Shown piece after piece: positions 29-53,000 of a stretch of 64,000 nt of DNA. This DNA is from Gammaproteobacteria bacterium (GTDB lineage Bacteria; Pseudomonadota; Gammaproteobacteria; CBDBNL01; JAAOII01). Position 1 is the stretch's first letter. Each line of letters begins with the position of its first letter. The position numbers and the translations under genes were made by a program. The notes beneath the pieces were generated by a model. The model was given only the letters and a program-made list of their open reading frames with translations, was not told the origin of the DNA and made no database searches. The stretch covers positions 648,958 through 712,957 of the forward strand of contig OZ242372.1 of the NCBI GenBank assembly GCA_965209035.1, in the 5' to 3' direction.

Positions 29-1078
29 TTAGACATGTCGCAAATGGCGGAGAATGGCCCGAATCAGGCGAGCGTCTATCCGGACTTCGCGACACAGGAC
101 CCACAGATCCGAAATGCCGAAATGCTCGCATTTCACCGCATCCTTTTCCGTAATGATAATCGGTGCGGGCTTGGACCCGACGGTCGCAAAGTTAAGGTCT
201 TCCCGCCGAAACCGGTGATGATTGGGAAAACTGTGCGTTTCACACACAATATTCTTTTTCTTTAAGGTGTCAAAAAAATTCCACGGTTGGGCGATGCCGC
301 AAACCGCCCGCACCTTCTTGCCCGCATACAGCTTTTTCCATTGGGCGATGGTTTTAACTTCCTTTGTGCCGGCTCGTCTGAGGTAAATCTTCTTAAGTGT
401 CATTCGGTATGTCTTATCTTTGTTGGACGCCAACAAACGCAATAACCTTGGATTGATGCCATTATCTCCCAAGTTCAAACAGTTTAGCAAGATATAATCC
501 ACTTTTTTCAGACGGGAAAGCGGTTCGCGCAGCGGACCGGCCGGCAGACAGTGCCCGTTACCAACACCCCCGACCGCATCCAGCACGGCAATTTCCAAAC
601 TGCGATGCATCGCATAGTGTTGCAAGCCGTCGTCACTGATCACCAGATCCGGATTGCATTCCCTTGCCAGATTGGCTGCCGCCACCGCCCGCAGCGGATG
701 CACATACACCGGGCAGTCGGTTCGCCGTGCCAGCAGCAACGGCTCGTCGCCGACTGCCACCGCCTTGCTGTTCCGATTGACAAGCATCCCGTTTTTCCGA
801 GTCGCTCCTCCCTTATAGCCGCGGCTGATAATGCCCGTCTTCAGACCGCGTTTCACCAGAACTTCGGCTAAACCGATCACCGCGGGTGTCTTGCCGGCAC
901 CGCCGACCGTCAGCCCTCCCACAACAATAATCGGCGGGTTAACTCGTCGGCTCGGCGGCCGCAACGCGTAGAACGCCCGCAGAGCTCCCATCGCGAGCCT
1001 GTATAAAAGTTCAAAAGGGAGTAAAAATAATGGAAAGATTCCGGAACCGGACCAGAGAGTCCGAAGAATACGAGGCAT
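29..1078 (-). CDS. lpxK: Tetraacyldisaccharide 4'-kinase (lipid A biosynthesis)
   Basis: P-loop 'VGGLTVGGAGKTP' and 'SRGYKGG' motifs typical of LpxK, with end-to-end collinearity to the LpxK fold. ATG at 1078 chosen over the upstream TTG at 1093. Sits downstream of msbA as in other Gram-negatives. Confidence 0.85.
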   Translation of the reverse strand: MPRILRTLWSGSGIFPLFLLPFELLYRLAMGALRAFYALRPPSRRVNPPIIVVGGLTVGGAGKTPAVIGLAEVLVKRGLKTGIISRGYKGGATRKNGMLVNRNSKAVAVGDEPLLLARRTDCPVYVHPLRAVAAANLARECNPDLVISDDGLQHYAMHRSLEIAVLDAVGGVGNGHCLPAGPLREPLSRLKKVDYILLNCLNLGDNGINPRLLRLLASNKDKTYRMTLKKIYLRRAGTKEVKTIAQWKKLYAGKKVRAVCGIAQPWNFFDTLKKKNIVCETHSFPNHHRFRREDLNFATVGSKPAPIIITEKDAVKCEHFGISDLWVLCREVRIDARLIRAILRHLRHV

Positions 1079-1125
1079 CAACAACAACAACAATTAAAAA
1101 CGCAAGACGGATCGGACAGACCCCG

Positions 1126-1169: not shown

Positions 1170-2902
1170 TTAGTCGCTGAACTGGCGGCGATACAAAGAA
1201 GCATAATGTCCTTTCTTGCTCAGCAATTCTTTGTGTGATCCTTCCTCCAGGACCCGCCCCTTGTCCAAAACAATGATCTTGTCCATTTTTCTGACCGTAG
1301 AAAGACGATGGGCGATCACCAAGACCGTTCTACCCCGCATACTCTCTTCCAGCGCAAGTTGAATCTTATGCTCCGTATCCGTGTCCAAAGAGGAAGTTGC
1401 CTCGTCCAAAATTAGGATCGGCGAGTTTCTAATCAAGGCACGTGCCAAAACAATCCGTTGTTTTTGGCCGCCGGAAAGAAGAACTCCTTTTTCACCTATC
1501 ACCGCATTCAATTGGTTTGGCATTTTTTCGACAAACTCCCAGGCCTGCGCTCTTTCCAAAGCGATTTTTAGTTCTTTGTCTGTCGGGTTTCTTTGCAAGC
1601 CATAAGTCAAGTTGTAACGCAAGGTATCGTCAAACAAAAAAATGTCCTGACTGACATAAGCGATACCGGCACGCCAAGCATACAACTCCAATTCCCGCAG
1701 ATCCGTATCGCCGATGCAAATCGCCCCTTTTTCTGGCTGGTAAAAACGAAACAACAGGCTAACAATTGTGCTCTTACCGCTGCCGGATTTGCCGACCAAC
1801 GCATTTTTGGCGCCGCCGATAATTTTTAAGTTAAATTCTCAAAAACAGGCAACCCCTTCTTGTAAGCAAAAGAAAGATTTTTGATATGAACATCCCGATG
1901 CTGCTCTTTCGGAGTGATTAAGCCCTTGCCCGCATTTGGTTCGTAACTTAACTTGAGGTACTCGATATAATCGCGCGCCGCCTCCTCGCCCGACACCATC
2001 TTGCCTTGAATACCGGACAGACTGCGGATATGCGGACCCAACAAAAAAATGGCGGTGATGTAACCCATGAATTCACCGAATGTCGAAAAACCGACGGATT
2101 GGACATTCATTGCAACCCAAATGATGGTCGCAAAGGCGATGGAAACAACAACGGACAACAAGGGCGATAATGTTGCGGAGACCACCACCATTTTAAGAGA
2201 TTGCCTCTTGTTACGAGCAATCAGTTTTTTGTATTTTTTGAATTCGTAATCTTCGGCTGCGGATGCCTTGATTAGAGACAAGGCGCCGAAGGCATCAATC
2301 ATCCGGCGCGATAACAAGACGGCCAGTTTCCGCAAGCGACCGGCAAGAACCTTAATTCTCTTTTTAAAGAAGTACATCATCACCAACAAAACGGGGACAG
2401 TTGCAAAAATGATCAGCGTCAACAACCAATTAAAGTAAAACAGGTAGCCCAAAAGAAAAATAAAGGAGATACCATCCCGTAACAGCACCGTCAAACCGGA
2501 ATTCAAGGCACCCACAATTAAACCGACATTGTAATTCAATTTGTTCAGGACTTCGCCGACGGATGTTTTGTCATAAAAATTGCGGGGAAGCCACATCAGA
2601 TGTCGATACATACGCACCGAGAGTTTTGCGGACACATTCACGGAAACATAGGATGCCGTTAGTCCCCCCAAAATGAGCCCTATACCGCGCATCAAAGTAA
2701 CCCCAACGATACCGAGCGGGATATACCATCGCCACAAAGAATCGGGTTGCGTATAAGCATCTTCCATTTTGTGCACCAATTCCGCCATACCCACATTGCC
2801 CAGGGAAGCAAGGGCAAAAAAGATGACGGCGAAAAAATACAACGACAGGTCTTTTTTTACATAACGGCCCAGCCCGATCAGGCCACGATAGGACTTAAAC
2901 AT
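1170..2902 (-). pseudogene. msbA: Lipid A/LPS ABC exporter MsbA, interrupted by a 1-nt frameshift. The transmembrane half is ORF 1826..2902 and the ATPase half is ORF 1170..1799.
   Basis: The upstream ORF has six-TM ABC exporter topology and ends '...PVFENLT*'. The downstream ORF begins in the -1 frame with '(E)FNLKIIGGAKNALVGKSGSGKST' (Walker A) and carries the ABC signature 'LSGGQKQR', Walker B 'ILILDEAT' and an H-loop. Joining the frames gives 'PVFENLNLKIIGGAKNALVGKSGSGKST', which is collinear with the E. coli MsbA junction '[28 protein letters not shown]'. Whether this is a true pseudogene or a sequencing or assembly indel cannot be told from the sequence alone. Confidence 0.7.
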
Positions 2903-2920: not shown

Positions 2921-3343
2921 TCAGAATTCGGTTGCTTCGCGCGTGGTAATTCGGATATTGAAAAAACCAAGTTGCCCGGCGACATCCATTAACAACACCA
3001 CCTTGCCATGGACAACCCTGGCATCCGCGGTGACTTGCAGTTCCCGCAAGTCCGACGCATCGCGCGCCCGCCTCAATGCGAGCGTCAATGTGTCGCGCCG
3101 GTTATTCGCCAACTTCTTGTCGTTCACAATATAGTTGCCGCCGGCGTCCACAATCACAGTAATTAATTCCGCCTCGCTTGCCGGATAACGCGATTGCGCC
3201 TCCGGCAGAACAACGGACAACCGATTTTCTTTAATAAAGTTCGTCGTCAGAATAAAAAACACCAGCATCATAAACACCACATCTATGAGAGGTGTCAGAT
3301 TAATTTGAATATTATTTTGTTCCGGCAGTCGCGGGAATTTCAC
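2921..3343 (-). CDS. exbD: ExbD/TolR-family biopolymer transport protein
   Basis: About 140 aa with an N-terminal single TM ('LTPLIDVVFMMLVFFIL') and an ExbD/TolR-like periplasmic domain. Paired with the upstream MotA/TolQ/ExbB protein. There are no tolA, tolB or pal genes, so ExbBD-type is more likely than TolQR. Confidence 0.75.
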   Translation of the reverse strand: MKFPRLPEQNNIQINLTPLIDVVFMMLVFFILTTNFIKENRLSVVLPEAQSRYPASEAELITVIVDAGGNYIVNDKKLANNRRDTLTLALRRARDASDLRELQVTADARVVHGKVVLLMDVAGQLGFFNIRITTREATEF

Positions 3344-3360: not shown

Positions 3361-3981
3361 TTATTTCGATCTTTTGTGCGGACGGAACATCATACTCAGT
3401 AACACGGAAGCCTGTCGCTCCATCTCCACACTGATGTCTTCCAGCCGTCTGATAAACATTCTGTGAAACACCACCGCCGGAATGGCGATGATCAAACCAT
3501 AAGCAGTCGTTAGCAGTGCCTGCGAAATACCGCGCGCCATAAAGGACGGTGAGGCGGTTTCCTGAAACGAGAAAAAAACTTCTATCATTCCGAGAACCGT
3601 GCCGAGAAGACCCAACAAAGGAGAAACAACCGCCACTGTTCCAAGTGCGTTAAGAAATCGTTTCAGTTTGTTTACCTGTTGCGCCGCTTCTTCTTCCATA
3701 CGCAAACTCATCTCATCGCGCCCGTATTTGGAATGATTCAACCCCGCCATCAAAATTCTGCCGAGTGGGTATCTTTGACTCATCTTATCCATTTGTTCCG
3801 AGGACAGTTGCTTACTTTCCACAAGATCCCACAGTCTGTAAACCAGCTCCGGCGGCGCCACATTTCTTTTGCGCAGAACCCAGAGTCTCTCCAAAATAAC
3901 GGCACAGCCGACCACGGAGAATAAAGTTAAAAAGTACATTACCGGACCGCCGGCAAGAAAAATTTCAAGCATAAGTGTCAA
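3361..3981 (-). CDS. exbB: MotA/TolQ/ExbB-family proton channel protein
   Basis: 206 aa with three TM segments and the conserved C-terminal 'GLLGTVLGMIEVF' region of ExbB/TolQ. Immediately upstream of exbD. Confidence 0.78.
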   Translation of the reverse strand: MTLMLEIFLAGGPVMYFLTLFSVVGCAVILERLWVLRKRNVAPPELVYRLWDLVESKQLSSEQMDKMSQRYPLGRILMAGLNHSKYGRDEMSLRMEEEAAQQVNKLKRFLNALGTVAVVSPLLGLLGTVLGMIEVFFSFQETASPSFMARGISQALLTTAYGLIIAIPAVVFHRMFIRRLEDISVEMERQASVLLSMMFRPHKRSK

Positions 3982-4024
3982 ACATAATTTTCAAATGGCG
4001 ATGAAACACATCGCTTTATATAAT

Positions 4025-6568
4025 TTAATGATCATAATTGAGATGCCAATAGCGTTTATTGATCACTCGATAACCCCTATTATAAGTTATTTTTTCTCCG
4101 CCCAATTCAAAAGTTGCCGCCCCCGTTTGCCAAAGAATTAATGGCACAGAGCCAATGCTTGCGTATCGGCGCACAATGTCCGCATGCGGGTGACCGTAAG
4201 GATTAAGATATCCGGCGGCAAAGACCGCATACAGAGGACGCACCGCCAGCACAAGCCTTTCGCCCGAGGCACCCGCACTGCCGTGGTGTGGCACCTGCAA
4301 CAGATCCGCCGTTGCGTTTGCCACGGCTGCCAAAAATTGCTCTTCCGCTTTTTGCGTGAGATCTCCCGTCAACAGAAGGCGATGCTCCCCCGCCGTCACT
4401 CTGAGCACGCAAGAATTATCATTCCGGTTTTTGCTTCTTTTACCCGGCACGGGATAGAGCAGCTCAAACAGCACCCCGTCCCATCTCCAGGATTGTCCGG
4501 CCTGACAGGGCAGGATCGGAAACCGGGAATTTGGCAGAGGGAAATTCAGCATCAGTTCGGTCCGGCGGGTGCGCTCCAACAGATCCTCCAGGCCGCCGCT
4601 GTGATCCCGATCCCGATGGCTGACAATGATCCTGTCCGGGTCCGCCCCGCCCAGATAGCTGAGATAAGGGGCTATCACCAGACTGCCGGCCGAACTGCGC
4701 GCAGAAAAAGAAGCCCCGGTATCATAAATTAACCGATGATTGGCGGTGCGAAGATACGTCGCCAACCCCTGACCGACATCCAAAAAAGTCACTTCCAGTT
4801 TGCCGGGGGCGAGTGACTTGTCCGCGGGAAAGAACAACGGCAAAAAGAACAATATTGCCAAAAGCGCATCCGCGGCGGAACGGCGGCATAGCCAAAAGAT
4901 GACCCCGACAACGGCACAAACTATGGCAAGAGCACTCGGCCGAGGGAGATGCACATAACTGCGGGGGAGACTCGCCGCCGCCGCCAAACCGTCATAACAA
5001 ACATCAATGAGCCAAACAAGAGGGACCAGCGAAAGTTCGCCAAGAACCGGCAAAACAAATAACAAAAAGGTTGTAAGAAAAATCCACGGCATCAAGACAA
5101 AAGTTGTCAGAGGAATTGCTATGAGGTTAACAAAAATTCCTGCGATGGAAAACTCGTAAAAGAAAAACAAAATAAACGGCGCCAAACAAAATACCAAACT
5201 CACCTGTAAAAACAACAACGAGCGAAAAAAAGCGAGCGGGCCGGCAGCTGGGCCGGCGGACGCACCGCCAAGCCGCCGGCTTGCCAAGAGGATAAAACCG
5301 GCGGCCGCAAAAGACAACCAGAAACCGGCACCAAGTGCCGCCAAAGGATTAATCATCAACACCGCCGCCATCGCCAAGACATAAATATTCAACAGGCGAT
5401 AAAAACGCCCGCAGAGCAGCAGCAACAAAAAAATACCCAGCATGATCAACGCGCGCTGTGTCGGCAACGAGAAGCCGGCAATAACGGCATAGCACCCTAT
5501 CAAAGGCAAGGTCATAAGTGCCGCCCATCCAAGCGGCGAACCGGCTGCGGAGAAAAGCGAGCCGCCGCTCAGTCGATGCAGTCTGCCAAACAAAAACATC
5601 AGGACGCCAAAAATGAAGCCACCCACCATGCTCAGATGCAAGCCGGATATGGCGATTAGATGCGAAATACCGTTGCGCCGCAACGCCAGCCTGTCCTCGG
5701 CGGATATTTCGCCACGGTCGCCGATCATCAGGGCATTCAGCAACCCGAGCGCATGCGACGAAGCACTCTGTTGCGAAAACTTGCGTTTGATTTTCCAACG
5801 TAATTGGGCAATCGGATACCGATGGCTTTCCCCGAGGAGCCGGGGAGCCGGTTTCGGGCGAACATAGCCCTGTCCTTTAATACCGGATTGCAGCATATAA
5901 CTCTCGTAATCAAAACCACCCGGGTTGCGAAACGAGTGGGGCCGGCGGATACGCATCGTTAGCCGCCATTTCTGTCCGGGAGCAATTTCCGTTCCTTCCG
6001 GCGGATCATACCAACTGAGTTGCACCCTGCGAAACGGCAAGGGCCTTGTGCCGGCTGCGGACAACAGGTTGCCGGCCGGATCCCGTAGCTCCCGGATGAC
6101 GAACACGAACCGAATGCGTCTTGCGCCCGGTGTCGGCAGGTCCGCAACATAACCGACGGCCTCCAGATCTTTCTTCTGCCAGTCCGCCGGCAGAACTGTG
6201 TGTGTCCGCCACAGACCCCAGCCGCAGGACCAAACGCCGCCGCAGATCAGTGCCAGGCATACCAGCCGGATCATATGAAGACGCGGCGGACAAGACGGCA
6301 GAGGAGAAAAGGCCGCCAGGAACGCGACTAGTAAAATAACCGCGATGGTCCCGGGAGCGGGCAGTTCCGGGATCAGGCTTGCCGCAATGATCCCCATATT
6401 GAAAAAAAGCAACAACAACGCAAAAGGCACTTGCCTTAATTGCCGCGCTTGGCAGTTGTTTACCGGTCTAAAAGCGCGCATACCGCTTCCCCTTGCCACC
6501 TTGCCGTCCGCTGCTTTTGATGCCTTTGAAGTATTTGAAGTATTTGAAGCCTCCGCAGGTTTCGTCAA
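4025..6568 (-). CDS. comEC: DNA internalization competence protein ComEC/Rec2
   Basis: Large polytopic membrane protein with a C-terminal metallo-beta-lactamase domain ('VSHRDRDHSGG', then 'LLLTGDL' and 'VPHHGS' motifs). Start codon uncertain: the maximal ORF includes an N-terminal low-complexity stretch encoded by a tandem repeat, and the true start may be an internal Met (MRAFRP or MGIIAASL). Confidence 0.8.
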   Translation of the reverse strand: MTKPAEASNTSNTSKASKAADGKVARGSGMRAFRPVNNCQARQLRQVPFALLLLFFNMGIIAASLIPELPAPGTIAVILLVAFLAAFSPLPSCPPRLHMIRLVCLALICGGVWSCGWGLWRTHTVLPADWQKKDLEAVGYVADLPTPGARRIRFVFVIRELRDPAGNLLSAAGTRPLPFRRVQLSWYDPPEGTEIAPGQKWRLTMRIRRPHSFRNPGGFDYESYMLQSGIKGQGYVRPKPAPRLLGESHRYPIAQLRWKIKRKFSQQSASSHALGLLNALMIGDRGEISAEDRLALRRNGISHLIAISGLHLSMVGGFIFGVLMFLFGRLHRLSGGSLFSAAGSPLGWAALMTLPLIGCYAVIAGFSLPTQRALIMLGIFLLLLLCGRFYRLLNIYVLAMAAVLMINPLAALGAGFWLSFAAAGFILLASRRLGGASAGPAAGPLAFFRSLLFLQVSLVFCLAPFILFFFYEFSIAGIFVNLIAIPLTTFVLMPWIFLTTFLLFVLPVLGELSLVPLVWLIDVCYDGLAAAASLPRSYVHLPRPSALAIVCAVVGVIFWLCRRSAADALLAILFFLPLFFPADKSLAPGKLEVTFLDVGQGLATYLRTANHRLIYDTGASFSARSSAGSLVIAPYLSYLGGADPDRIIVSHRDRDHSGGLEDLLERTRRTELMLNFPLPNSRFPILPCQAGQSWRWDGVLFELLYPVPGKRSKNRNDNSCVLRVTAGEHRLLLTGDLTQKAEEQFLAAVANATADLLQVPHHGSAGASGERLVLAVRPLYAVFAAGYLNPYGHPHADIVRRYASIGSVPLILWQTGAATFELGGEKITYNRGYRVINKRYWHLNYDH
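6525..6549. repeat. Tandem 9-bp repeat (TTTGAAGTA)x2.7 in the yggS-comEC spacer / extended comEC 5' region
   Basis: Read directly at 6525-6549. It encodes 'NTSNTS' in the maximal comEC ORF. Confidence 0.8.
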
Positions 6569-8357: not shown

Positions 8358-8846
8358 GTGCGTCGTCTGTCTGTCTTTTTGTTTTGTGCCTTTGCCATCC
8401 TGGTAGCGGATCAATGGAGCAAACAGGCGGTGACCGTGGCACTCAACCAAGGAGAGCGTATCGCCGTTTTTTCTTGGCTGGACATTACACTGGCGTATAA
8501 TCGCGGGGCCGCCTTCGGTTTTCTGGCAAACACCCCCTGGGCCAACCATATTTTTACCCTGGTGGCATCCGCAGCCTCCATCCTGATTCTTTATTATTTG
8601 TTTAGAAACCGAAACGCGGCTATTTTTCTGCAACAAAGTGCCTTGTCTCTCATCCTCGCCGGAGCACTCGGCAATCTTGCTGACAGGTTCAAACATGGCT
8701 ATGTGACCGACTTTGTCTCCCTGCATTACGGCAATTGGTATTATCCGAGTTTTAATGTTGCCGATGCCGCCATTAGTATCGGCGCCTGCTTTCTGCTGGC
8801 GGATGTTTTTTGGGAAACGTTCCGGTCGGTGCGAAAGAATCGTTAA
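8358..8846 (+). CDS. lspA: Lipoprotein signal peptidase II
   Basis: Four-TM protein with LspA motifs 'NRGAAFGFL', 'GALGNLADR' and 'FNVADAAI'. GTG start. Directly upstream of ispH as in the conserved lspA-ispH arrangement. Confidence 0.85.
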
Positions 8847-8875
8847 TTCTTATTAACTCTTTAAGGCATCAACAA

Positions 8876-9946
8876 ATGGAGATCATTCTGGCAAATCCGC
8901 GCGGGTTTTGCGCGGGCGTGGATCGGGCAATTTTATTAGTGGAAAGGGCTCTGATATTGTTTGGCAAGCCCGTTTATGTCCGGCATGAAATTGTGCATAA
9001 CAAGTATGTTGTTGCGGAGTTGGAAAAGCGCGGTGTCATCTTCGCGGAAGATATCCGCGAGATCCCGCCGAAAAGCACGGTGATTTTCAGCGCGCACGGC
9101 AGTTCCAAAAAAATTCGCCGGGAGGCGGAAGAACGCAGCCTCCGTATTTTTGATGCCATCTGTCCGTTGGTGACCAAAGTGCATATGGAAGTCCAAAGAT
9201 TTGAACTGGAAGGCTACGAATGCATCTTAATCGGACATGCCGGACATCCCGAAGTAGAGGGGACACTGGGGCAGTTCGGGCAGCTGCGGCAGTCCGGTGA
9301 AAAGCGAACCTCAGAACAAGCCCCCAAACAAACAGAAGCACTAACCGAGGCATCACCGGCCAAAGGCATCTATCTGGTGGGCGACTGTTGCCAAGCCGAA
9401 ACAGTGCAAGTCCGCAACCCGGCAAAACTTGCTTATGTCACTCAGACCACTCTGTCCGTGGACGATACAAAAGAAATCATCGGTGTCCTCAAACGCCGCT
9501 TCCCGCAGATCAAAGAGCCGGCAAAAGACGACATCTGCTACGCAACACAAAACAGACAGGACGCGGTCAAGTCGCTGGCCGCCAAATGCGATTTAATTCT
9601 GGTCATCGGCTCGGAGAACAGTTCCAATTCCAACAGGCTCTGTGAAATTGCCAAGAGTTACGGCAGTGTTTCTTACCTGATCAATGATGTCTCTCATATT
9701 AAAAAGAAATGGCTGGATGATGTTCGGGTTGTCGGCATTACCGCCGGGGCATCCGCACCGGAGAAACTGGTGCAAAACACTTTAGATTTTTTTCGTGCAA
9801 ACTATCCGCGCTGCGTGATTCGCAATGCGCCCGGCAAGCCGGAAAATGTCATCTTTAACTTGCCCGCGGAAATTCGCGCGCTGCCGATTAAGAATATTCC
9901 CGTTTGGGAATCCTTGTCCGAGTTCGGCGCGAACGGGGCAAAATAG
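8876..9946 (+). CDS. ispH: 4-hydroxy-3-methylbut-2-enyl diphosphate reductase (IspH/LytB)
   Basis: N-terminus '[19 protein letters not shown]', 'SAHG', 'HPEVEGT', '[10 protein letters not shown]' and '[11 protein letters not shown]' align with E. coli IspH. It carries a roughly 25-aa low-complexity insert ([28 protein letters not shown]) not present in E. coli. Confidence 0.9.
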
Positions 9947-30374: not shown

Positions 30375-31674
30375 TGCATAGTCTCATAAAGGTTCTGGAC
30401 TCTGAGTTTGGTATTGTGCGTCCTCAGATCAAGCAGCCGGAGGTTCTGTCGGACGGGTCGAAAATAGATCCGGCAACGGGTCTTCGGTATGTGGAGCTAG
30501 ATGAATGAAACGGGCAAGAAGGACGGATAGCTGTTTTGCTCTCACCGCCGCAGACAGCGGAGGCTTGTTGTTGATAAAACTGTCTAGGTGTATCCGCTGG
30601 CGAGACGGTACGGTTTGTGAGGGCAGCCGGACTGCACATTGGAAATGAGAGGAACACGTTTACGCTACATTGGTTATCGCGTGCGCGGTTTCAATAAAAT
30701 GGTGGTTTTAGCAAACAAATATTCAAACATGTCTAAAACCACCAAAATCAAACTGGACACCTTAGCGTTCGCGCGCAAACATGGTGTCGCGGCGGCGCTG
30801 GATCATGCCGGGATCAGTCGTGCTACATTCTACGAGTGGCAGCGGCGTTTCCGTGAAGGCGGGGTCGATGAACTGGCGAACAACTATGGGTATCAGCCCA
30901 AGCGGTCCAACACCTGGCCACCGGCACTGATTGACAAGATCCGGTCTTGGCGACAAGAGCGACCGAATATCGGTCCCAATAAACTGGTCTGCTTGTTACC
31001 CGAATGGTGCCAGCAGCAGGGGCTGCCGGCACCCAGCCGGTCAACCATTGCCCGCATCATCGCTGATGCACCGGGTAAGATGCGGCACCAGTCATCGCTG
31101 ACCGAGCAGAAGAACCCGCGGCAAGGTGCTCCTCGCGAGCGCAAGGACATCTGCTTTGTTGCGGGCCGGAGAGGTGAATGTGTTGCCTTTGATACGCTCG
31201 TCCGCATCGTCGATGGCCGGCGCTTTTATTGGCATGTCGGCATTGACCTATTTTCCCGCTTCTCACTGGTCAGTGTCGACACCTCCGCTGCTTCGGCCAG
31301 TTCCGCCCGGCTCTTTACCGCCATGCAAAACATACTCGGCACTCGGATCGAAAAAGTCCTCACCGATAATGGCAGTGAGTTCGCCAAAGACTTTCACCGG
31401 ATCGTGACCGCAAACGGCAGCACCCACTGGTATACTTATCCAAGGAAACCGCAAATGAATGCACACTGCGAACGGTTTAATCGCACTCTCTGGGAAGAGT
31501 TCGGTTGTCATATGCGGCATCTCTTGGTTAAGGATATGCCGGCATTCAACGCCAAACTCATCGAGTGGTTGGCTTGGTATAATCTTGAACGTCCCCATTA
31601 TGCTCTCAAACAACTCTCGCCGATCCAATTTTTGCAAAAACAACAAAAGTCCAGAAATGGGTGGGACCATACAA
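30375..31674 (+). mobile_element. IS element copy 1 (IS481-like, 1300 bp)
   Basis: A 1300-bp unit repeated in direct tandem. Left end TGCATAGTCTCATAAAGGTTCTGGAC, right end ...GTCCAGAAATGGGTGGGACCATACAA (imperfect terminal inverted repeats sharing TTCTGGAC). It is flanked by TTTGA / TTTG and encodes a single HTH plus rve-type transposase. Confidence 0.75.
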
Positions 31675-31685
31675 TTTGTGCATGA
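30729..31685 (+). CDS. Transposase (HTH + DDE/rve integrase core), IS481-family-like
   Basis: N-terminal HTH ('ISRATFYEWQRRFREGG'), an rve core with 'D..D' and the C-terminal 'NAHCERFNRTLWEEF' E-motif. Single ORF with no frameshift. Confidence 0.8.
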   Translation: MSKTTKIKLDTLAFARKHGVAAALDHAGISRATFYEWQRRFREGGVDELANNYGYQPKRSNTWPPALIDKIRSWRQERPNIGPNKLVCLLPEWCQQQGLPAPSRSTIARIIADAPGKMRHQSSLTEQKNPRQGAPRERKDICFVAGRRGECVAFDTLVRIVDGRRFYWHVGIDLFSRFSLVSVDTSAASASSARLFTAMQNILGTRIEKVLTDNGSEFAKDFHRIVTANGSTHWYTYPRKPQMNAHCERFNRTLWEEFGCHMRHLLVKDMPAFNAKLIEWLAWYNLERPHYALKQLSPIQFLQKQQKSRNGWDHTICA

Positions 31686-32978
31686 TCTCATAAAGGTTCT
31701 GGACTCTGAGTTCGGCATTGTGCGTCCTCAGATCAAGCGGCCGGAGGTTCTGTCGGACGGGTCGAAAATAGATCCGGCAACGGGCCTTCGGTATGTGGAG
31801 CTAGATGAATGAAACGGGCAAGAAGGACGGATAGCTGTTTTGCTCTCACCGCCGCAGACAGCGGAGGCTTGTTGTTGATAAAACTGTCTAGGTGTATCCG
31901 CTGGCGAGACGGTACGGTTTGTGAGGGCAGCCGGACTGCACATTGGAAATGAGAGGGACACGTTTACGCTACATTGGTTATCGCGTGCGCGGTTTCAATA
32001 AAATGGTGGTTTTAGCAAATCAATATTTAAACATGTCTAAAACCACCAAAATAAAACTGGACACCTTGGCGTTCGCGCGCAAACATGGTGTCGCGGCCGC
32101 GTTGGATCATACCAGGATCAGTCGTGCTACATTCTACGAGTGGCAGCGGCGTTTCCGTGAAGGCGGGGTCGATGAACTGGCGAACAACTATGGGTATCAG
32201 CCCAAGCGGTCCAACACCTGGCCACCGGCACTGATTACCAAGATCCGATCTTGGCGACAACAGCGTCCGAACATCGGTGCCGGTAAACTGGTCTGCTTGT
32301 TACCCGAATGGTGTCAGCAGCGCGGGCTGCCGCTGCCCAGCCAATCAACGCTCTCTCGCATCATTGCCGATGACCCGGATAAGATGCGGTGCAAACCATC
32401 GCGGTCCGTGCCGAAACGCCCGCGGCATGGTGCTCCGCGCGAGCGCAAGGACACCCGCTTTGTTGCGGGCCGGAGAGGTGAATGTGTTGCCTTTGATACG
32501 CTCGTCCGCATCGTCGATGGCCGGCGCTTTTATTGGCATGTCGGCATTGACCTATTTTCCCGCTTCTCACTGGTCAGTGTCGACACCTCCGCTGCTTCGG
32601 CCAGTTCCGCCCGGCTCTTTACCGCCATGCAAAACATACTCGGCACTCGGATCGAAAAAGTCCTCACCGATAATGGCAGTGAGTTCGCCAAAGACTTTCA
32701 CCGGGTCGTGACCGCAAACGGCAGCACCCACTGGTATACCTATCCAAGGAAACCGCAAATGAATGCACACTGCGAACGGTTTAATCGCACTCTCTGGGAA
32801 GAGTTCGGTTGTCATATGCGGCATCTCTTGGTTAAGGATATGCCGGCATTCAACGCCAAACTCATCGAGTGGTTGGCTTGGTATAATCTGGAACGTCCCC
32901 ATTATGCTCTCAAACAACTCTCGCCAATCCAGTTTTTGCAAAAACAACAAAAGTCCAGAAATGGGTGGGATCATACAA
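31679..32978 (+). mobile_element. IS element copy 2 (IS481-like, 1300 bp), separated from copy 1 by 4 bp (TTTG) and followed by TTTGA
   Basis: Near-identical ends to copy 1. One internal segment is highly diverged from copy 1. Confidence 0.75.
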
Positions 32979-32983
32979 TTTGA
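32033..32983 (+). CDS. Transposase (second copy)
   Basis: Same architecture as the copy-1 transposase. Confidence 0.8.
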   Translation: MSKTTKIKLDTLAFARKHGVAAALDHTRISRATFYEWQRRFREGGVDELANNYGYQPKRSNTWPPALITKIRSWRQQRPNIGAGKLVCLLPEWCQQRGLPLPSQSTLSRIIADDPDKMRCKPSRSVPKRPRHGAPRERKDTRFVAGRRGECVAFDTLVRIVDGRRFYWHVGIDLFSRFSLVSVDTSAASASSARLFTAMQNILGTRIEKVLTDNGSEFAKDFHRVVTANGSTHWYTYPRKPQMNAHCERFNRTLWEEFGCHMRHLLVKDMPAFNAKLIEWLAWYNLERPHYALKQLSPIQFLQKQQKSRNGWDHTI

Positions 32984-35862: not shown

Positions 35863-36999
35863 TTACCGGCTGATCCTTTTTTGAGTGCGCGGAGAAAACA
35901 GATGGAATTCTTTAACACTGAGACGAATTTTTTCGCCGACGCCAAAGTTTTGCCGTCGATGAAACAGGACAATTAATGGGTCTCCGGGCGGCGACAGACA
36001 ATGCAGCACAGTTTGTGAACCCGTGTGTTCCGCCAATGTAACCCGCACTTCCGTTCCTTCTCTCGTGCTCGCTTCTTTGTCTTTTTTAATGCTCTTTTTT
36101 TCCGAAGCAGATAAATGAAAATGTTCGGGGCGAACACCGAGGATCACTTCTTTCTCCCTATTATCATTGTTATCATTACCTTTTACACTTGCGACATCCG
36201 TATTGGGTAACTCGAGTGACCAGTTGTTTTTATGAAATACAAGTGCGCCCTTCTCTCTTCGCACAGTTCCCCGGATAAAATTCATTGCCGGCGAGCCAAT
36301 GAAACCCGCCACAAACAGGTTGTTCGGTTTGTCATACAACTCCATCGGTTTTCCCTGCCGAACAATGCGACCGCGATCCAAAATGACGACTTGATCGGCA
36401 AGGGTCATGGCTTCCACCTGGTCGTGGGTTACATAAATAATGGTGTTCTTAAATTTTTGATGCAGTCTTTTGATTTCGGAACGCATGTGCATACGCAATT
36501 TGGCGTCCAAGTTAGACAGAGGTTCGTCAAACAAAAATAAATCGGGATTACGCACCAGAGCGCGACCCATCGCAACGCGTTGCCTTTGGCCGCCGGATAA
36601 TTGGGCGGGGCGATAACTGAGTTGCTCGCGAAGATTGAGCGTATCGGCGACCTCCCCCACCCTTCTTTTTATTTCTTTGGCGGATACCTTGCGAATTTTT
36701 AAGCCGTAAGAAATATTGTCGTAAACATTCATATGGGGAAAGAGCGCGTAGCTCTGAAAAACCATTGAAGTGTTTCTTTGTTGGGGAGCGAGACGGGTGT
36801 AGTCCCGGTTATTGACTAGAACCCGTCCCCGGGTGGGCTCTTCCAGACCGGCAATGATCCGCAGAAGAGTTGTTTTGCCGCAACCGGAAGGGCCGATCAG
36901 GACGACAAATTCTTTATCGGCAATTTTCATGTTGATGTTTTCAAGGACAGCTTTGTCGCCAAATGATTTGTCAATGTTTTTGATTTCAAGTTTTGCCAT
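35863..36999 (-). CDS. Sugar ABC transporter ATP-binding protein (MalK/UgpC type)
   Basis: Walker A 'GPSGCGKTT', signature 'LSGGQRQR', Walker B 'FLFDEPLSNLD', and a C-terminal MalK-like regulatory (TOBE) domain. Confidence 0.88.
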   Translation of the reverse strand: MAKLEIKNIDKSFGDKAVLENINMKIADKEFVVLIGPSGCGKTTLLRIIAGLEEPTRGRVLVNNRDYTRLAPQQRNTSMVFQSYALFPHMNVYDNISYGLKIRKVSAKEIKRRVGEVADTLNLREQLSYRPAQLSGGQRQRVAMGRALVRNPDLFLFDEPLSNLDAKLRMHMRSEIKRLHQKFKNTIIYVTHDQVEAMTLADQVVILDRGRIVRQGKPMELYDKPNNLFVAGFIGSPAMNFIRGTVRREKGALVFHKNNWSLELPNTDVASVKGNDNNDNREKEVILGVRPEHFHLSASEKKSIKKDKEASTREGTEVRVTLAEHTGSQTVLHCLSPPGDPLIVLFHRRQNFGVGEKIRLSVKEFHLFSPRTQKRISR

Positions 37000-37029: not shown

Positions 37030-37830
37030 TTAGAAACTGTTTGTGTTGCTGTCGGTGATCTCGGCTGCCATGCCAATATTGCCGACACTCAGTCCGCAAT
37101 CTACGGGTAGCAGAACGCCGCTAATGGCGGCTGCCTTGTCCGAGAGTAAGAATTCGGCCGCATCGGCAATATCCTGCGGACAGACCAAGCGGCCGAGCGG
37201 ATAATATTTGCGGAGAGTTTGCATTAGTTGCGGTCGCTTGGCCAGACGCTGTTCCCAGGCGACTGTCTTGACAGAACCGGGACAGATGGCATTAATCCGC
37301 AGTCCGTGACGGCCGTATTCGGCCGCCAGGGAAAAGACCATATTATGAAGAGCCGCTTTGGCCGCACTGTAGGCCGGATTCCCGTAATACCGGAAACCGT
37401 TGACACTACCGATGAACAACATCACTCCCGCCCTTTTTATGAAGGCCGGCATCAGCGCATGGCAACAATAATAGGCGGAATTCATATTTAAGTTCATCTC
37501 CGTTTGCCATTGGGTCGGGTCTAAGGCCGCGTATGTTTCCGCTCGGGTCTCGCCGACATTGTTGATAAACCTTGTAATGCCAGAATTCTCCGCGGGCAAC
37601 CGAGAAAAAACCTTCGCCACTTCGGCGGCGGAAGTAACATCCAAGCAGACAAACCGTACTCTGCCATCGCATTCGGTGAGAGTGTTGTTAATGCGTTCGG
37701 CGGATTTTTGCCCCGCCTTCTCGTCCCGGTCTATGGCGAACACTTGCATACCCAAGCGGGCAAAATGAGCGGTCAGTGCTTCGCCTATGCCTTTGGCAGA
37801 TCCGGTAATGATGATCCCTGCGGCTTTCAT
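37030..37830 (-). CDS. Short-chain dehydrogenase/reductase (SDR) family oxidoreductase
   Basis: 'ITGSAKGIG' cofactor-binding motif, catalytic 'YSAAK', and a 'NAICPG' region. Confidence 0.88.
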   Translation of the reverse strand: MKAAGIIITGSAKGIGEALTAHFARLGMQVFAIDRDEKAGQKSAERINNTLTECDGRVRFVCLDVTSAAEVAKVFSRLPAENSGITRFINNVGETRAETYAALDPTQWQTEMNLNMNSAYYCCHALMPAFIKRAGVMLFIGSVNGFRYYGNPAYSAAKAALHNMVFSLAAEYGRHGLRINAICPGSVKTVAWEQRLAKRPQLMQTLRKYYPLGRLVCPQDIADAAEFLLSDKAAAISGVLLPVDCGLSVGNIGMAAEITDSNTNSF

Positions 37831-39011
37831 ATGGCGTTCCGGCCTCTTTTGTGCAAAATTTGTTTAAGGGTTTTCAAATTATCGGTTGTTAGGAGACCGT
37901 AGTTATAAAAAGCAATTTGAGGAATTTCGTGCTTTGCCAATTCCGGAAGTATTTGATTGAGTTCTTCGGTCTGCATATCCGGTAAGCCGGGACGCAGAAT
38001 GCAGTTGATGTCTGCCTTTGCCGCGGCCGAGCGATTGCGAACCATTAGGAAATTGGCAAGAATTTTTGTGAAGTTGTCGCCATAAAGCGGAAGTTCCAAA
38101 TAATCCGACGCTTTGGCAAGGGCGGCATAATCCGTTCCTTCGGTCCAAGCAAGGCCGAGCGGTTGTCGAACACTCGGGATACAACCCAGGGATACCGCCG
38201 AAGGAATACTTTGTTTTATCTCGCCGACCAAAGATGTCACTTGTTGGCTGCGCCAATTAATGAAATCACCGAGGCCTTCGCCTTGTTTGTCTTGCAGAAA
38301 ATCATAGAGCATCCAGCTTTCGGCACTGTCGGCGAGATCCGGCGCGTAGTTTAGTTGAAAATCCAATTGCTTTTTGACTTTGTCACGGACGGAAACAAAG
38401 TCTATGCCGGCCGCCTCGGCTCGCTTTTGGCAGGCCTCGCAAAAACACAATCCCAGCAGAGTTTCAACAAAAGCATTGAGCGGAAATTGCGAAAATTCAT
38501 GGTGGTAACCGTGCGCGTAAGGCATAAAGCCGGGCGTTTCAACAACGATGCTTTGGATGGGATAATTCTCGGCCAGGTCTTTGCAGAGAGTGACGGCGTA
38601 TTCTCGGACAGAATCTTGAGACAAGCATAAGTTGTACACATATCCGTCGCCATAGACATTCTTGACTGTGAGGTGCGGGTGTTTGCCACCCAGTCGGCTG
38701 TTGTGAAAGAGCACTGTCCAAGCGCGAACATCGGCTTGAGTGGCAATCTTTTTATAAAGATCCGTATCGTTTACGATGGAACTCATTTGGGGTTTGACTT
38801 CGCCGTAAACCGCCCGCGGACGAAAGTAAACCGTGCCGTCTTCGGGAAAGTAAACGCGAGATTTTTGGTTGCGCGGCTGCAAGAACTTGCCGGCATGATA
38901 GGATGCCGCCAGAGTGATGCTGTCGCAGCCGAGGGATTTTAAGTCAGTTAATGCGTCCCGCAGTGGTCTGTCGGCCAGGTCCCATAAGTATACATAAGCG
39001 GAAAATTTCAT
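37827..39011 (-). CDS. Hypothetical protein (394 aa), possible TIM-barrel-type carbohydrate-active enzyme, embedded in the sugar ABC operon
   Basis: Start MKFSAYVYLWDL at 39011, overlapping the upstream permease stop. Its own stop overlaps the SDR start. I recognise no signature motif, so the function is not assignable from the sequence. Confidence 0.45.
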   Translation of the reverse strand: MKFSAYVYLWDLADRPLRDALTDLKSLGCDSITLAASYHAGKFLQPRNQKSRVYFPEDGTVYFRPRAVYGEVKPQMSSIVNDTDLYKKIATQADVRAWTVLFHNSRLGGKHPHLTVKNVYGDGYVYNLCLSQDSVREYAVTLCKDLAENYPIQSIVVETPGFMPYAHGYHHEFSQFPLNAFVETLLGLCFCEACQKRAEAAGIDFVSVRDKVKKQLDFQLNYAPDLADSAESWMLYDFLQDKQGEGLGDFINWRSQQVTSLVGEIKQSIPSAVSLGCIPSVRQPLGLAWTEGTDYAALAKASDYLELPLYGDNFTKILANFLMVRNRSAAAKADINCILRPGLPDMQTEELNQILPELAKHEIPQIAFYNYGLLTTDNLKTLKQILHKRGRNAI

Positions 39012-39838
39012 TTTACCGCTCCCATGGACAGACCTTCTATGAGGTACTTTTGCAGCCAAGCAAAAGCGATCGCCACGGGAAGAATTGCAAGCAGACTGGC
39101 GCCCATCACATGATGCCATTCTATTGAGTATCGGCCGCCGACCAGAGAATGAACTTGCAAAGTGAGGGTGAACTTCTCTTGCGAACGCAGCACGGACAGG
39201 GCTATGACGAATTCATTCCATGCCATGACGAAAGTGAAAATGGCGGCTACAACCAGGGCCGGAAGTGCAAGGGGTAAAAATACGCCGATGACGCCGCGCA
39301 GCCTTCCGCAGCCTTCCAGCCAGGCCGCTTCTTCCAGATCCTTGGGGATCGTCGCAAAGTAATTTTGCAGCATCCAAACACAAAACGCAAGATTGAAAGC
39401 GGTATAACATAAAACCAGAGAATTCAGTTGGTCTATGAGACCCAGATAAGCAATGAGTTTAAACAGCCCGACGACAAGAACAATCGGCGAGAGCATTTGA
39501 GTTACCAGTAAGAAGTAACTGACAAAATTTTTGGCGCGAAATTTGTAACGTGCCAGCGCGTAAGCCATCGGGACGGCAATGAACAGAGTGCAGATGGTGC
39601 TGGCACCCGCCACATACAAACTGTTAACCAGGGCTCTGCCGAAGCCGGTCGCTTGCCACATGTCCGCATAGTTCCGCCAATTGAACATTTCGGGCAGCCA
39701 GCGAGTCGGATAGGCGAATACTTCCGCCTGGGACTTGAGCGAGGTGAGCAGCATGACAGCCATCGGGAACAAAATAAAAAATAGAACCGGAAGCATGAAC
39801 GACCAGCAGATTAAAGTCTTATATAGTTTGTTTTGCAC
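39008..39838 (-). CDS. Sugar ABC transporter permease (MalG/UgpE-like)
   Basis: Six TM segments and an EAA-like loop ('LEEAAWLEGCG...'). Confidence 0.82.
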   Translation of the reverse strand: MQNKLYKTLICWSFMLPVLFFILFPMAVMLLTSLKSQAEVFAYPTRWLPEMFNWRNYADMWQATGFGRALVNSLYVAGASTICTLFIAVPMAYALARYKFRAKNFVSYFLLVTQMLSPIVLVVGLFKLIAYLGLIDQLNSLVLCYTAFNLAFCVWMLQNYFATIPKDLEEAAWLEGCGRLRGVIGVFLPLALPALVVAAIFTFVMAWNEFVIALSVLRSQEKFTLTLQVHSLVGGRYSIEWHHVMGASLLAILPVAIAFAWLQKYLIEGLSMGAVK

Positions 39839-40739
39839 TTTTTTGTATCAGTCGGATATATAAAACAATAAAAATCATTAGGATGGCGAACATAATCAGC
39901 GAAAGAGCGGCGGCATCATCCAAACGCCCGAAACGAAATGCCAACTTGTATAAATAAGTTACCAGAATGTCCGTGGCATTTGCGGGACCTCCCTGAGTGG
40001 TGACCCAAATGATCGGGAAAGAATTAAAGACATAAATCATGTTCAACACAATTGCCATGTTCAAAAAAGGACGCATCATTGGCAAGGTGAGGGTGTAAAA
40101 TCTGCGCACATAGTCGGCGCCTTCCACTCTGGCCGCATCATAAATCTCCGCGGAAATAGACGCCAAACCGCCAAGAAAAATTGCAACTGTGAACGGAATA
40201 GAAACAATGATGCCGATGACTATTTGCCAGGCAAATGCGGTGATTGCCGTCCCAAACCAAAATATAGGTTCGTTGATTAACCCGGCCTGACGTAACAGAT
40301 GGTTCATTAACCCGTATTCTCCGTTTAGAACCCAACGCCAAACAATGCCCATCATGGCAAGAGAGATTGCCCAGGGTAACATGATCAAAACACGGGCGAT
40401 GTTTCTGCCGTAAAAATTTTCTCGCAGAATTAATGCCAGGGGCATAGACAAAACAATGGTCCCCGTAACCACAAGGATCATCCATATCAGGGTGCGCGCA
40501 AGAGCGCCAAAAAATAAAGGGTCGGTAAGAACAGTGCCGAAGTTTTCCAGACCGACAAAACCGCGCAGGCTGCCAAAACGACTTACATTATGCGATGCCA
40601 GAATAATGAGCTCCGTTAGCGGGTAAAGAATGACAAATCCCGCAAACAATAATCCGGGAAGGACCATCATATAAGGGAAGTATCCGCCTCTTTGGCGCAA
40701 GTTTTCCTTGGGCCTCACTTTTTCTTCTTGCCGCCGCAC
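39819..40739 (-). CDS. Sugar ABC transporter permease (MalF/UgpA-like)
   Basis: Six TM segments and the EAA motif 'IYDAARVEGADYVRRF'. Start uncertain (could be the internal MMVLPG). Confidence 0.8.
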   Translation of the reverse strand: MRRQEEKVRPKENLRQRGGYFPYMMVLPGLLFAGFVILYPLTELIILASHNVSRFGSLRGFVGLENFGTVLTDPLFFGALARTLIWMILVVTGTIVLSMPLALILRENFYGRNIARVLIMLPWAISLAMMGIVWRWVLNGEYGLMNHLLRQAGLINEPIFWFGTAITAFAWQIVIGIIVSIPFTVAIFLGGLASISAEIYDAARVEGADYVRRFYTLTLPMMRPFLNMAIVLNMIYVFNSFPIIWVTTQGGPANATDILVTYLYKLAFRFGRLDDAAALSLIMFAILMIFIVLYIRLIQKSAKQTI

Positions 40740-48600: not shown

Positions 48601-50033
48601 TGAATTCCCAAGCGATGCAAAGTGGGTGCCCGATTGAGCAAAACAGGATGCTGCTTGATAACTTCCGCCAGTATATCCCACAGACTTGCATCTTCCCTTT
48701 CCACAATTTGCTTGGCCTCTTTGATGCTGCTCGCTTCACCGCGATTAATTAATTTGGAAAATACAAACGGCTTAAACAATTCTATTGCCATTTTTTTTGG
48801 CAAGCCACATTCATGCAGTTTAAGATCCGGTCCCACCGCAATAACCGAACGGCCGGAATAGTCCACTCGCTTTCCAAGCAAGTTTTGTCGAAACCGTCCC
48901 TGTTTGCCCTTGATCATGTCCACCAAGGATTTAAGCGGCCGCTTATTATGGTCCACCAGAGGTTGGTTGTCCCGACTATTGTCCAGTAACCGATCTACGG
49001 ATTCTTGCAGCATGCGTTTTTCATTGTTTATGATAATTTCCGGGGCATGCAAATCCAACAGTTTCTTAAGGCGGCCGTTACGATTAATGACCCGGCGATA
49101 GCAGTCATTTAGATCGGAAGCGGCAAAGCGACCGCCCTCCAACGGAACCAAGGGGCGTAATTCCGGCGGCAACACGGGGAGAACCTTAAATATCATCCAA
49201 GAAGGTTTGTTCTTGCCGGCATCAAACGCCTCCAACACTTTTAACCTGGCAGAAAGTTTTCTTTCAGTGAGTTCGGAACGACGACGTGCCGCCGTCAATT
49301 GAAGACGAACCGCCTTAATTTGTTCGGGAATGTCCACTTTTTCGATCATCTCCAATATGGCTTCGGCCCCCATTCCAACTCGGAATGCGTTCGGGTCGGG
49401 ATACTCCTCGCGCAGATGATGATATTCTTCCTCCGTGAGAATTTGCCCGACTTTGACTTGCTTGGTTTCCGATTCGTCTTTGTCTTTTTTATCTTTTTTA
49501 CCTTTCTTATCTTTTGTCTCTTTCTTATCTTTTGTCTCTTTCTTACCCGTTTCGCTTTTATCGGTCTTTTCGGCAGCGACATCCAAAATGACATGGGATT
49601 CAAAGTAAAGAATTCGCTCCAAACTCCTCAAAGGAAGTCCCAAAAATAAAGCAAGGCGAGAAGGCAATGACTTGAGAAACCAGATATGTGCCACGGGGCT
49701 GGCAAGTTCAATATGTCCCATACGCGTTCGCCGAACTTTGGAAAGTGTGACCTCCACACCGCATTTTTCGCAAACAACACCGCGATGTCGCTGCCTTTTA
49801 TACTTGCCGCAAAGACATTCGTAATCTTTGATGGGGCCGAAAATTCTGGCACAAAAGAGCCCGTCTCTCTCGGGCTTAAAAGTGCGATAATTGATGGTCT
49901 CGGATTTCTTAACTTCTCCGTAAGACCAAGAACGAATAGTTTCCGGAGATGCCAGGCGAATAAAAACCGAGCGGATTTCTTTGCGAGCCTCTGTGCCGAT
50001 CTCCTTATTATTGTTTATCATTTCATCAATCAT
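45681..50033 (-). CDS. rpoC: DNA-directed RNA polymerase subunit beta'
   Basis: N-terminal zinc finger 'CLCGKYKR...CEKCGVEV', the 'NADFDGDQM' catalytic motif, and full-length collinearity. Carries a K/E/T-rich insert of about 40 aa near residue 170. Confidence 0.97.
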
Positions 50034-50093: not shown

Positions 50094-53000
50094 CTAATTC
50101 TTGTAATCGATGTTTAATCCGAGTGAACGAATTTCATTAATCAATACATGAAATGACTCGGGGATGTAGTGGACGGAATAAGAAGAACCGGCAATGATAT
50201 TCTTATAAACTTCGTTTCTTCCTCTTTCGTCATCGGATTTCACTGTCAACATTTCTTGCAGAGTGTATGCGGCACCATAAGATTCCAACGCCCATACTTC
50301 CATTTCACCAAAACGTTGTCCTCCCATTTGCGCCTTACCGCCAAGAGGCTGCCGAGTAACCAGACCATAAGAGCCGATGGAACGCGCGTGAATCTTATCT
50401 TCTACCAAATGATTTAACTTGAGCATGTATACCTGCCCGACAGTCACAGGACGATCAAATTGCTCGCCGGTACGCCCGTCAAAGAGCACCTTGCGTTCGG
50501 ACGGAGAGGCACCGGCAATATTCAGCATCTCTTTTATATCCTCTTCTTTTGCGCCGTAAAAAACCGGGGTGGCAAAAGGAACGCCGTCTTTGTAATTTTG
50601 ACATACTTCCAGTAATTGTTCATCGGTCAAGTCACCAAAAAACTTTTTGGCACGCCCGTTATCCATACTTGCGTAAACTTTATCAAGTAACTTACGCAAT
50701 GCGGTAAGTTTTTTTTCATTGGACATCAAGGCAGTAATTTTTCTTCCCAATTCTTTGGCAGCATCTCCAAGATGTGCTTCCAAAAGTTGACCAATATTCA
50801 TACGAGAAGGTAGCCCCAAAGGACTGAGAACAATATCAAGGGCGTTTCCCTCTTCGTCATGGGGCATGTCCTCCGTTGGCATCACCGCGGACACCACACC
50901 TTTGTTACCATGGCGACCCGCCAGCTTGTCTCCCGATTGTATCGGTCTTTTGGCCGCAACATAAACCTTGACAATTTTTAGAACACCGGGGGCAAGACCT
51001 TCGGCACCGGATCTGATGCCTTTTTCTTGTTTCTTTAATTGCTTGTTAAGATTAACTTCCACTTCTTCCAAATTCTCTCTTGCCTTTTCCAAAAGATCGT
51101 TTAGGGCCGCACTGCGCATACTCAGCCCGAAAATGTCTTCGAGTTCACATTTTGCCAGATAGGCGGCGGTTATGTTTTGCCCCGCCTTCAGTCCCTTGCC
51201 TTTCGCCGCCGCTTTACCTTTTAACTTTTCTTTAAGATTGGTTTCGGTAATCTTACGAACCATCTGATAGCGGATTTTACTCTCTTTGCGGATTTCCGCA
51301 AGCTGTTCTTTGTCAATCTCTTTTGCCCGGCTGTCCTTATTTTCTTTGCCCTTGGTAAATACTTCCACATCTATGACCTTGCCCTTTACTCCCGAAGGCA
51401 ACCGCAAAGAACTGTCTTTAACATCGGCCGCTTTTTCACCAAAGACCGCTCGCAGTAAACTTTCTTCGGCGGTCAGTGTGTCCTCGCTTTTGGGGGTAAT
51501 CATACCAACCAAAATATCTCCGCTTTTTACCTGAGCACCGACGCGAATGATGCCGGATGTATCCAGGTTGGCAAGAGCCGCTTCGCCGATGTTTGGTATT
51601 TCTCTGGTAATCTCTTCGTCTCCCAGTTTTGTATTGCGCACGGTACAGACAAACTCCATAATATGAATACTGGTTAAAACATCGTCGGCTACCAGACGCT
51701 CGGAAATCAAAATAGAGTCTTCAAAATTGTAGCCCTTCCAACACATGAAGCCCACACGCAGATTTGTGCCGAGCGCAAGTTCCCCCATATCGGTTGCCGC
51801 CCCGTCCGCGAGAACATCCATTGGTTCCACTTTGTCTCCCAACTTGACAACAGGCCTCTGACTAATCACAGTGTTTTGATTGGAGCGACGAAATCTTGCC
51901 AAAGAATAGATGTCCACGGGTAGCTCATCATCATCTTCGGTAACACGCACAACAATTCGCTTGGCATCTATTTCTTCAACAATACCCTTGCGGCGAGCAA
52001 GGATACAACTGCCGGCATCCCTGGCAACATAGCTTTCCATTCCGGTCCCAACCAACGGCTTTTGTTTTTTTAGCAACGGGACCGCCTGTCTTTGCATGTT
52101 GGAACCCATTAAGGCCCTGTTCGCATCATCATGCTCCAAAAAAGGAATCAGGGACGCGGCAACGGATATTAATTGTTTGGCATCCACATCCATCAGGGTA
52201 ATCTCTTCGCGCGGCATAAAAATCACATCGCCTTTATGTCTGACCATGAGCATTTTCTCAACAAACTTGTTTTGGGAGTCCAGCAAATTGTTGCCGGATG
52301 CAATTGTATGTTCTTTTTCGTCCATAGCCGAAAGCCAGACTACTGCATCGGTTGCCTTGCCGTTGCTAACCTTACGATAAGGAGTTTCCAGAAAACCAAA
52401 CTCATTAATTTTGGTGTGAATTGCCATAGAATTAATGAGGCCGATGTTTGCTCCTTCAGGGGTTTCTATGGGACATAAGCGGCCATAATGGGTGGGATGT
52501 ACATCACGAACCTCAAATCCTGCCCGGTCACGCGACAGACCACCGGGTCCCAAAGCCGATATACGCCTTTTATGCGTAATTTCAGCCAACGGGTTAATTT
52601 GATCCGTTAATTGAGACAACTGGCTGCTTGTAAAAAAATCACGTATTGCCCCGGAAACCGCTTTTGCACTCACCAAATCCTTTGGGGTGTAAGTATCTAT
52701 ATCCGGCAAACTGAGTCTTTCGCGTACCGCGCGTTCTATACGCAAAAGGCCCAAACGAAGTTGGTTGAACATCATTTCACCGACTTGACGGACGCGGCGA
52801 TTGCTGAGGCTGTCTATATCATCTACCTCGCTAACACCCTTACGAATATCCAAAAGAATTTTGACCGTATCAATAATATCTTTCCTTTGTAAGACCATCA
52901 CATCTTCACCATCTTTACTGTCCCTACCCAGCCGCTTATTTAATTTCATACGACCGACATGCGATAAACTATACCGGTCATCGCTAAAGAACAGATTATT

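Follow-up and report, generated by a model that had tools for sequence, protein, structure and literature searches.

The msbA gene of the window, as we call the whole 64,000-nucleotide stretch of DNA that was analysed, is interrupted at a defined site by a one-base difference from its nearest orthologue. Both halves of the gene are themselves intact and under selective constraint, and the orthologues are intact. We infer, with a probability of roughly three in four, that the missing A is a residual single-base deletion error in the consensus. AAA would thus have been misread as AA in the consensus of a long-read metagenome-assembled chromosome, and msbA would be fully functional in all other respects. 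The organism would then make a normal MsbA half-transporter of 577 aa, which would dimerise and flip core-lipid A across the inner membrane, and msbA would be co-transcribed with lpxK. A sequence-only reading of the locus had left the choice between a sequencing or assembly error and a very recent inactivation, and this choice is supported by the intact orthologue, by the purifying selection acting on both halves of the gene and by the intact lpxK.

According to the ORF list and the three-frame translation, msbA comprises, on the minus strand, a 358-aa ORF (2902..1826) followed by an ATPase half in the -1 frame, which is open between 1838 and 1170. Frame 0 reads ...NLSFAYKKGLPVFENLT* and is closed by a premature TAA at 1828-1826, which leaves the ORF with the tail KGLPVFENLT. 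The -1 (= +2) frame opens at 1838, directly after the TGA at 1841-1839, reads EFNLKIIGGAKNALVGKSGSGKST... and stops at 1172-1170. In the three-frame translation, the ten bases 1838..1829 (GAATTTAACT on the coding strand) are the sole stretch in which both frames are open, and the frame change is therefore confined to this interval. The 5' part (1826..2902, minus strand), as delimited by the ORF list and by a Pfam ABC_membrane match in the first ORF (115 bits, 6e-33), carries the transmembrane domain and approximately the first 35 residues of the ATPase domain. Judging by position, the strand that bears the A-loop tyrosine (...NLSFAY...) should belong to this fragment. The 3' part (1170..1838, minus strand) carries the remainder of the ATPase domain in the -1 frame, as indicated by its translation, by its dN/dS ratio and by a Pfam ABC_tran match of 100 bits (2e-28) that begins at position 5 of the 137 positions of the profile.

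The closest relative of the protein is P0122, an intact MsbA of 577 aa encoded on the 48-kb metagenome contig L058 (95.5% aa identity). When the window gene is aligned with L058:860-2593 at the DNA level, the alignment comprises 1,734 columns at 94% nt identity and contains one gap, which lies in the interval where the two frames overlap (1829..1838, minus strand). At this gap, the window reads GAGAATTT-AACTTAAAA, against GAGAATTTAAACTTAACA in L058. The window has TTTAAC where the relative has TTTAAAC, the AAA run being short by one A, and the remaining AA is located at 1832-1831 (TT at 1831-1832 on the plus strand). When one A is added back, a collinear protein of 577 aa is obtained, the junction of which reads PVFENLNLKI, as compared with PVFENLNLTI in P0122. 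The three-frame translation and the single gap relative to L058 confirm that msbA is split by a one-nucleotide frameshift, as the sequence-only reading had claimed, and its peptide strings, the FENLT-stop, the -1 frame and the coordinates 1799-1845 are accurate. The missing A that it had proposed as a repair exactly matches the gap relative to the intact, 94%-identical orthologue. Only the length of the repaired ORF has to be corrected, from the approximately 580 aa it had given to 577 aa.

Over its entire length, the repaired protein aligns collinearly with the MsbA structures of A. baumannii (8gk7/7met, 389 bits) and E. coli (3b5w, 353 bits). With the membrane domain alone, the strong PDB matches are essentially limited to MsbA (151 bits), the next family being ABCB9 (50 bits). 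The best NCBIfam model is TIGR02203, MsbA_lipidA, with 507 bits, which is approximately 140 bits above the best model of any other transporter family. This score is below the curated equivalog cut-off of 602, as are those of the intact P0122 (503) and P0001 (535), and the low score is therefore explained by the divergence of the lineage and not by decay. The motifs of the ATPase are complete in the 1838-1170 frame, with the Walker A GKSGSGKST, the Q-loop VSQD, the signature LSGGQKQR, the Walker B ILILDEATS and the H-loop IAHRLST. In the alignment to the E. coli MsbA chains, R72, R142 and R293 of the window protein correspond to R78, R148 and K299, which we take to be the basic residues that contact the phosphates of lipid A. 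The protein resembles the MsbA of E. coli and A. baumannii in its full-length collinearity, in its best NCBIfam family and in its comEC-...-msbA-lpxK-kdsB neighbourhood. In contrast, its identity to named MsbA proteins is only about 35-39% (about 37% for named gammaproteobacterial MsbA), its score is below the equivalog cut-off, and its frame is broken by one base in the record. As deposited, the membrane (PF00664) and ATPase (PF00005) domains are adjacent but in two frames, and they belong to a single polypeptide only after the A has been restored. We accept the msbA assignment, with the TIGR02203 cut-off as a caveat, and lipid A flipping is predicted on this basis.

The genes flanking msbA are intact. 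The lpxK gene, encoding lipid A 4'-kinase, is directly downstream and in the same orientation (29..1093, minus strand), and the Pfam LpxK match of its product (305 bits) extends over positions 3-327 of 328, which bears out the earlier statement that this gene is intact. The LpxK of the relatives aligns to the window in one frame, from 1060 to about 32-41, and the true start of lpxK is probably a little downstream of 1093. Upstream of msbA, all on the minus strand, are exbD (2921-3343) and exbB (3361-3981), both supported by Pfam matches of full length and by single-frame alignment of the ExbD and ExbB of the relatives, and comEC (4025-6568), supported by single-frame alignment of the ComEC of the relatives. 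The gene order comEC-exbB-exbD-msbA-lpxK-kdsB is common to the relatives L095 and L098. The linkage of msbA to lipid A and Kdo genes is provided by the adjoining lpxK in the window and by the succession msbA-lpxK-kdsB in the relatives. The spacer between msbA and lpxK exhibits, at 1130-1156, a 9-bp unit (CCATAATAG / AATAGCCAT) that is present three times in tandem, with one unit fewer in L058.

We consider it unlikely that a real and very recent 1-bp deletion inactivated msbA, which would leave a truncated membrane fragment and no functional ATPase. This possibility is weakened by the observation that all full-length relatives retrieved have kept msbA intact. Clustering at 90% identity groups the N-terminal fragment P0003 (358 aa) with only two other proteins, the second fragment P0121 (209 aa) and the intact P0122. 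Both fragments are encoded on one contig, evidently that of the source genome. The next MsbA relatives (P0001, P0002 and P0004-P0010), which show 44-60% identity and have 586-616 aa, are full-length where they are complete, and all of them keep L-(N/T/S)-L-x-I at the junction. When the genome and metagenome contig collections were scanned with the repaired protein, none of the matches was closer than 35-46% identity, except for a partial match of 99 residues with 54% identity. The collections searched contained no independent assembly of the same strain.

The pattern of substitutions in msbA also bears on a real loss. Relative to L058, dN/dS (Nei-Gojobori) is 0.108 for the whole gene, 0.138 upstream of the shift and 0.070 downstream of it, with a dS of approximately 0.21. 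The amino acid differences between the window protein and P0122, 26 in total, were polarised with nine outgroup sequences: nine are derived in the window, eight are derived in the relative and nine are ambiguous. Downstream of the shift, two derived changes are observed in the window versus four in the relative. No relaxed selection is detected in the window lineage, since there is no excess of amino acid changes and dN/dS is 0.07-0.14, and no second lesion (extra stop or indel) is present in msbA, the alignment with L058 having one gap only. If the ATPase half had been drifting along the whole branch, tens of extra replacements would be expected over the 512 downstream non-synonymous sites, and none is seen. 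The low dN/dS, the lone gap and the nine versus eight derived changes thus give no sign of a decaying pseudogene. A real inactivation would have to be so recent as to have left neither relaxed selection nor a second lesion. Even if each of the 2-3 changes downstream of the shift that are window-derived or ambiguous is assigned to the time after inactivation, the event would be dated, by rough estimate, to approximately the final 15% of the divergence separating the window from its nearest relative, and the true interval is probably much shorter.

With regard to the origin of the data, RpoB (rpoB, 50094-54149) has a 100% match solely on the contig that carries the two msbA fragments. It shows 74-75% identity to two metagenome contigs and only approximately 55% to the RpoB of any named gammaproteobacterium. 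A handful of metagenome contigs of 1.8-2.3 Mb represent the nearest relatives. From these sequences, the organism looks like a member of a deep or fast-evolving uncultured lineage with small genomes. Judging by the names of the contigs of the relatives, which include s291.ptg000325l (2.167 Mb), ctg48610_3.15x_l and ctg150394c (2.318 Mb; the final c probably marks a circular contig), this lineage looks to be known only from long-read metagenome assemblies. From these names and from the two resolved tandem copies of a 1,304-bp IS, we infer that the window is part of a long-read metagenome-assembled chromosome. In long-read metagenome assemblies, single-base indels are the main residual error. 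In the related low-coverage contig L097 (ctg40508_2.78x_l, labelled 2.78x), 1-nt indels split rplJ into 91 + 103 aa and shorten nusG to 134 aa; these breaks are at 3482-4100 and 1881-2285, and the genes of the window and of L096 are intact at both places. We read these breaks as assembly errors in essential genes, and such data therefore do put 1-nt errors into essential genes. The msbA break resembles the singleton frameshifts of the GeneTack survey (PMC3711429) and the gene-fragmenting indels of long-read data (PMC12007338) in being a lone, non-conserved 1-nt break with homologue support on both sides. It differs from them in that the run in msbA is only 3 nt long and in that no other such break is present in the window.

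The immediate context of the missing base is less favourable to a consensus error. The base is missing from a run of only three A, whereas the 24 homopolymers of 5-7 nt in the same msbA are all in frame. The earlier suggestion of an error in an A/T run is correct in that the lesion is in an A run, but a run of only 3 nt does not make a textbook homopolymer error. A purely length-dependent homopolymer error would be expected first in one of the 24 longer runs. In addition, the window otherwise looks accurate: as no other frame break was seen in the parts of it that were compared or inspected, the indel error rate of the assembly is low, which also speaks against an error. When the ORFs of L058, L095 and L096 were translated and searched against the window, msbA was the sole protein aligning in two frames within the approximately 31 kb that are comparable. 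The window and L096 show 95.8% nt identity over 19.9 kb, with indels that are either intergenic or in-frame in coding sequence. No frame disruption was found in the suspicious pairs of adjacent or overlapping ORFs on the same strand, every pair consisting of distinct complete genes; these pairs include a methyltransferase gene, lspA and ispH, two permease genes, cvpA and the gene of a SPOR-domain protein, and truB and rbfA. General genome decay was rejected for the window, as msbA is the only frame-disrupted gene among those comparable with the relatives. Since the window does not come from a decaying genome, the IS tandem and the in-frame insert in rpoC provide no support for pseudogenisation. 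Inserts and IS tandems had been put forward as a hint of inactivation, but with the rest of the window undisrupted they do not make a real pseudogenisation likelier.

The same context may be turned in favour of a real deletion, because so short a run is not where platform errors typically arise and because the window is otherwise clean. The frameshift is, moreover, present in the sole sequence of the strain at hand. A fast-evolving lineage, with an RpoB approximately 55% identical to that of named gammaproteobacteria and with a tandem IS, would fit a host-associated or small-population lifestyle in which deleterious mutations can fix. A few species, among them Neisseria meningitidis, can dispense with msbA and with lipid A synthesis, and this was also counted in favour of a real loss. 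After such a loss, the cells could survive if a different flippase took over, if they needed less LPS or if a host sheltered them, a scenario that we likewise regard as doubtful. A second MsbA-like exporter, which the sequence-only reading had advised looking for, was not found in the window, where the only other ABC ATPase (35863-36999) adjoins importer-type permeases. Furthermore, lpxK is intact directly downstream, and lipid A synthesis thus still looks functional at this step at least. Depletion of LpxK in A. baumannii indicates that blocking the lipid A pathway late, while its early steps proceed, is toxic even where the loss of lipid A is tolerated (PMC5555675), and MsbA is described as essential in Gram-negative bacteria (PMC2888566). 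As late-pathway blocks are toxic and MsbA is described as essential, a real msbA null is unlikely to be the consensus, and a strongly deleterious allele is in general unlikely to become the consensus of an environmental population. Errors strike genes regardless of their importance, whereas fixed nulls should almost never hit a conserved, strongly constrained gene that is described as essential, least of all when lpxK, and presumably the other steps of lipid A synthesis, are still active.

Nothing beyond the single base supports a real loss. We find it highly doubtful that the missing base is real and that the canonical lipid A flippase was lost only a short time ago from a lineage in which lpxK, the only lipid A synthesis gene visible, is still intact. 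If this were true, it would point to an alternative route of lipid A export or to a population caught at the first step of the loss of outer-membrane LPS. It would then document how an LPS export step that is normally essential is lost in nature, a rare event seen as it happened, in a lineage without a cultured member. If the missing A is instead an error in the consensus, as we prefer, the msbA of this genome is to be treated as intact in annotation. In that case, P0003 (358 aa) and P0121 (209 aa), which are separate public protein entries, are not to be read as a natural split transporter.

A further explanation, which we judge extremely improbable, is that the deletion is real and is rescued, either by a -1 ribosomal slip at G_AAU_UUA_AC, giving ...ENLNLKI..., or by restart and assembly of the fragments. 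If the Leu-tRNA slipped by -1 from UUA to UUU and AAC were read next, a protein of wild-type length would result, and low-level spontaneous slippage is conceivable. Known programmed frameshifts include the -1 shift of dnaX at A_AAA_AAG, the +1 shift of prfB and those of IS transposases. The msbA site resembles them in that its two frames overlap and would be fused by a -1 slip to yield a full-length product, but it differs in having neither a canonical heptamer, nor a stimulatory structure, nor a conserved shift. The only candidate heptamer, G_AAU_UUA, is not of the X_XXY_YYZ type, and a slip would require the P-site pairing to change from AAU to GAA. No stable RNA structure is predicted for the 91 nt that surround and follow the site, the MFE being -19.4 kcal/mol versus a mean of -20.7 for shuffled sequences (z = 0.45). 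As the gene of the nearest relative reads through this position in frame, the shift is not conserved. A programmed -1 frameshift was rejected in the absence of slippery heptamer, stimulatory structure and conservation. Phase variation was also rejected on the sequence, as the run is only 2-3 nt. Transcriptional realignment has been reported for A/T runs of n > 7-8 (PMC3711429), and no A or T run reaches this length here; the longest nearby homopolymer is A5, and transcriptional slippage was rejected for this reason.

Function in two pieces fares no better. The cut precedes the Walker A motif, so that the beginning of the ATPase domain remains attached to the membrane fragment. Among the usual start codons (ATG/GTG/TTG), the earliest that the ATPase frame offers is a TTG at 1799, which lies only two residues ahead of Walker A and lacks a Shine-Dalgarno sequence. 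With the ATPase domain divided in this way and no codon suitable for a restart, the two fragments are hardly likely to function on their own. A functional two-piece transporter was thus rejected as implausible.

Several other features of the window were noted. At 30375-32982, two copies of the 1,304-bp IS are arranged head-to-tail without a spacer and are 95% identical to each other. Each copy encodes a transposase of approximately 350 aa with HTH and rve integrase domains, and no further copy is present in the window. Such diverged IS copies in perfect tandem are unusual. In rpoC, at approximately 49492-49526 (minus strand, about residues 165-190), a 27-nt in-frame insertion is observed relative to both close relatives, in a lysine/aspartate-rich low-complexity stretch that reads KKEAKDKKSKKDKDE in the relatives; this insertion has the appearance of a repeat expansion. 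Another in-frame indel, of 3 nt, is located separately at 45792. A 430-aa ORF without Pfam match (37827-39119, minus strand) lies directly downstream of two importer-type ABC permease genes (39008-40739), and the ABC ATPase gene at 35863-36999 is two genes beyond it, past a 266-aa ORF at 37030-37830. The 430-aa ORF may encode a divergent substrate-binding protein. In ispH/lytB (8777-9946), the LytB match covers 302 protein residues for 264 profile positions, which suggests an insertion of about 38 residues within the LytB domain.
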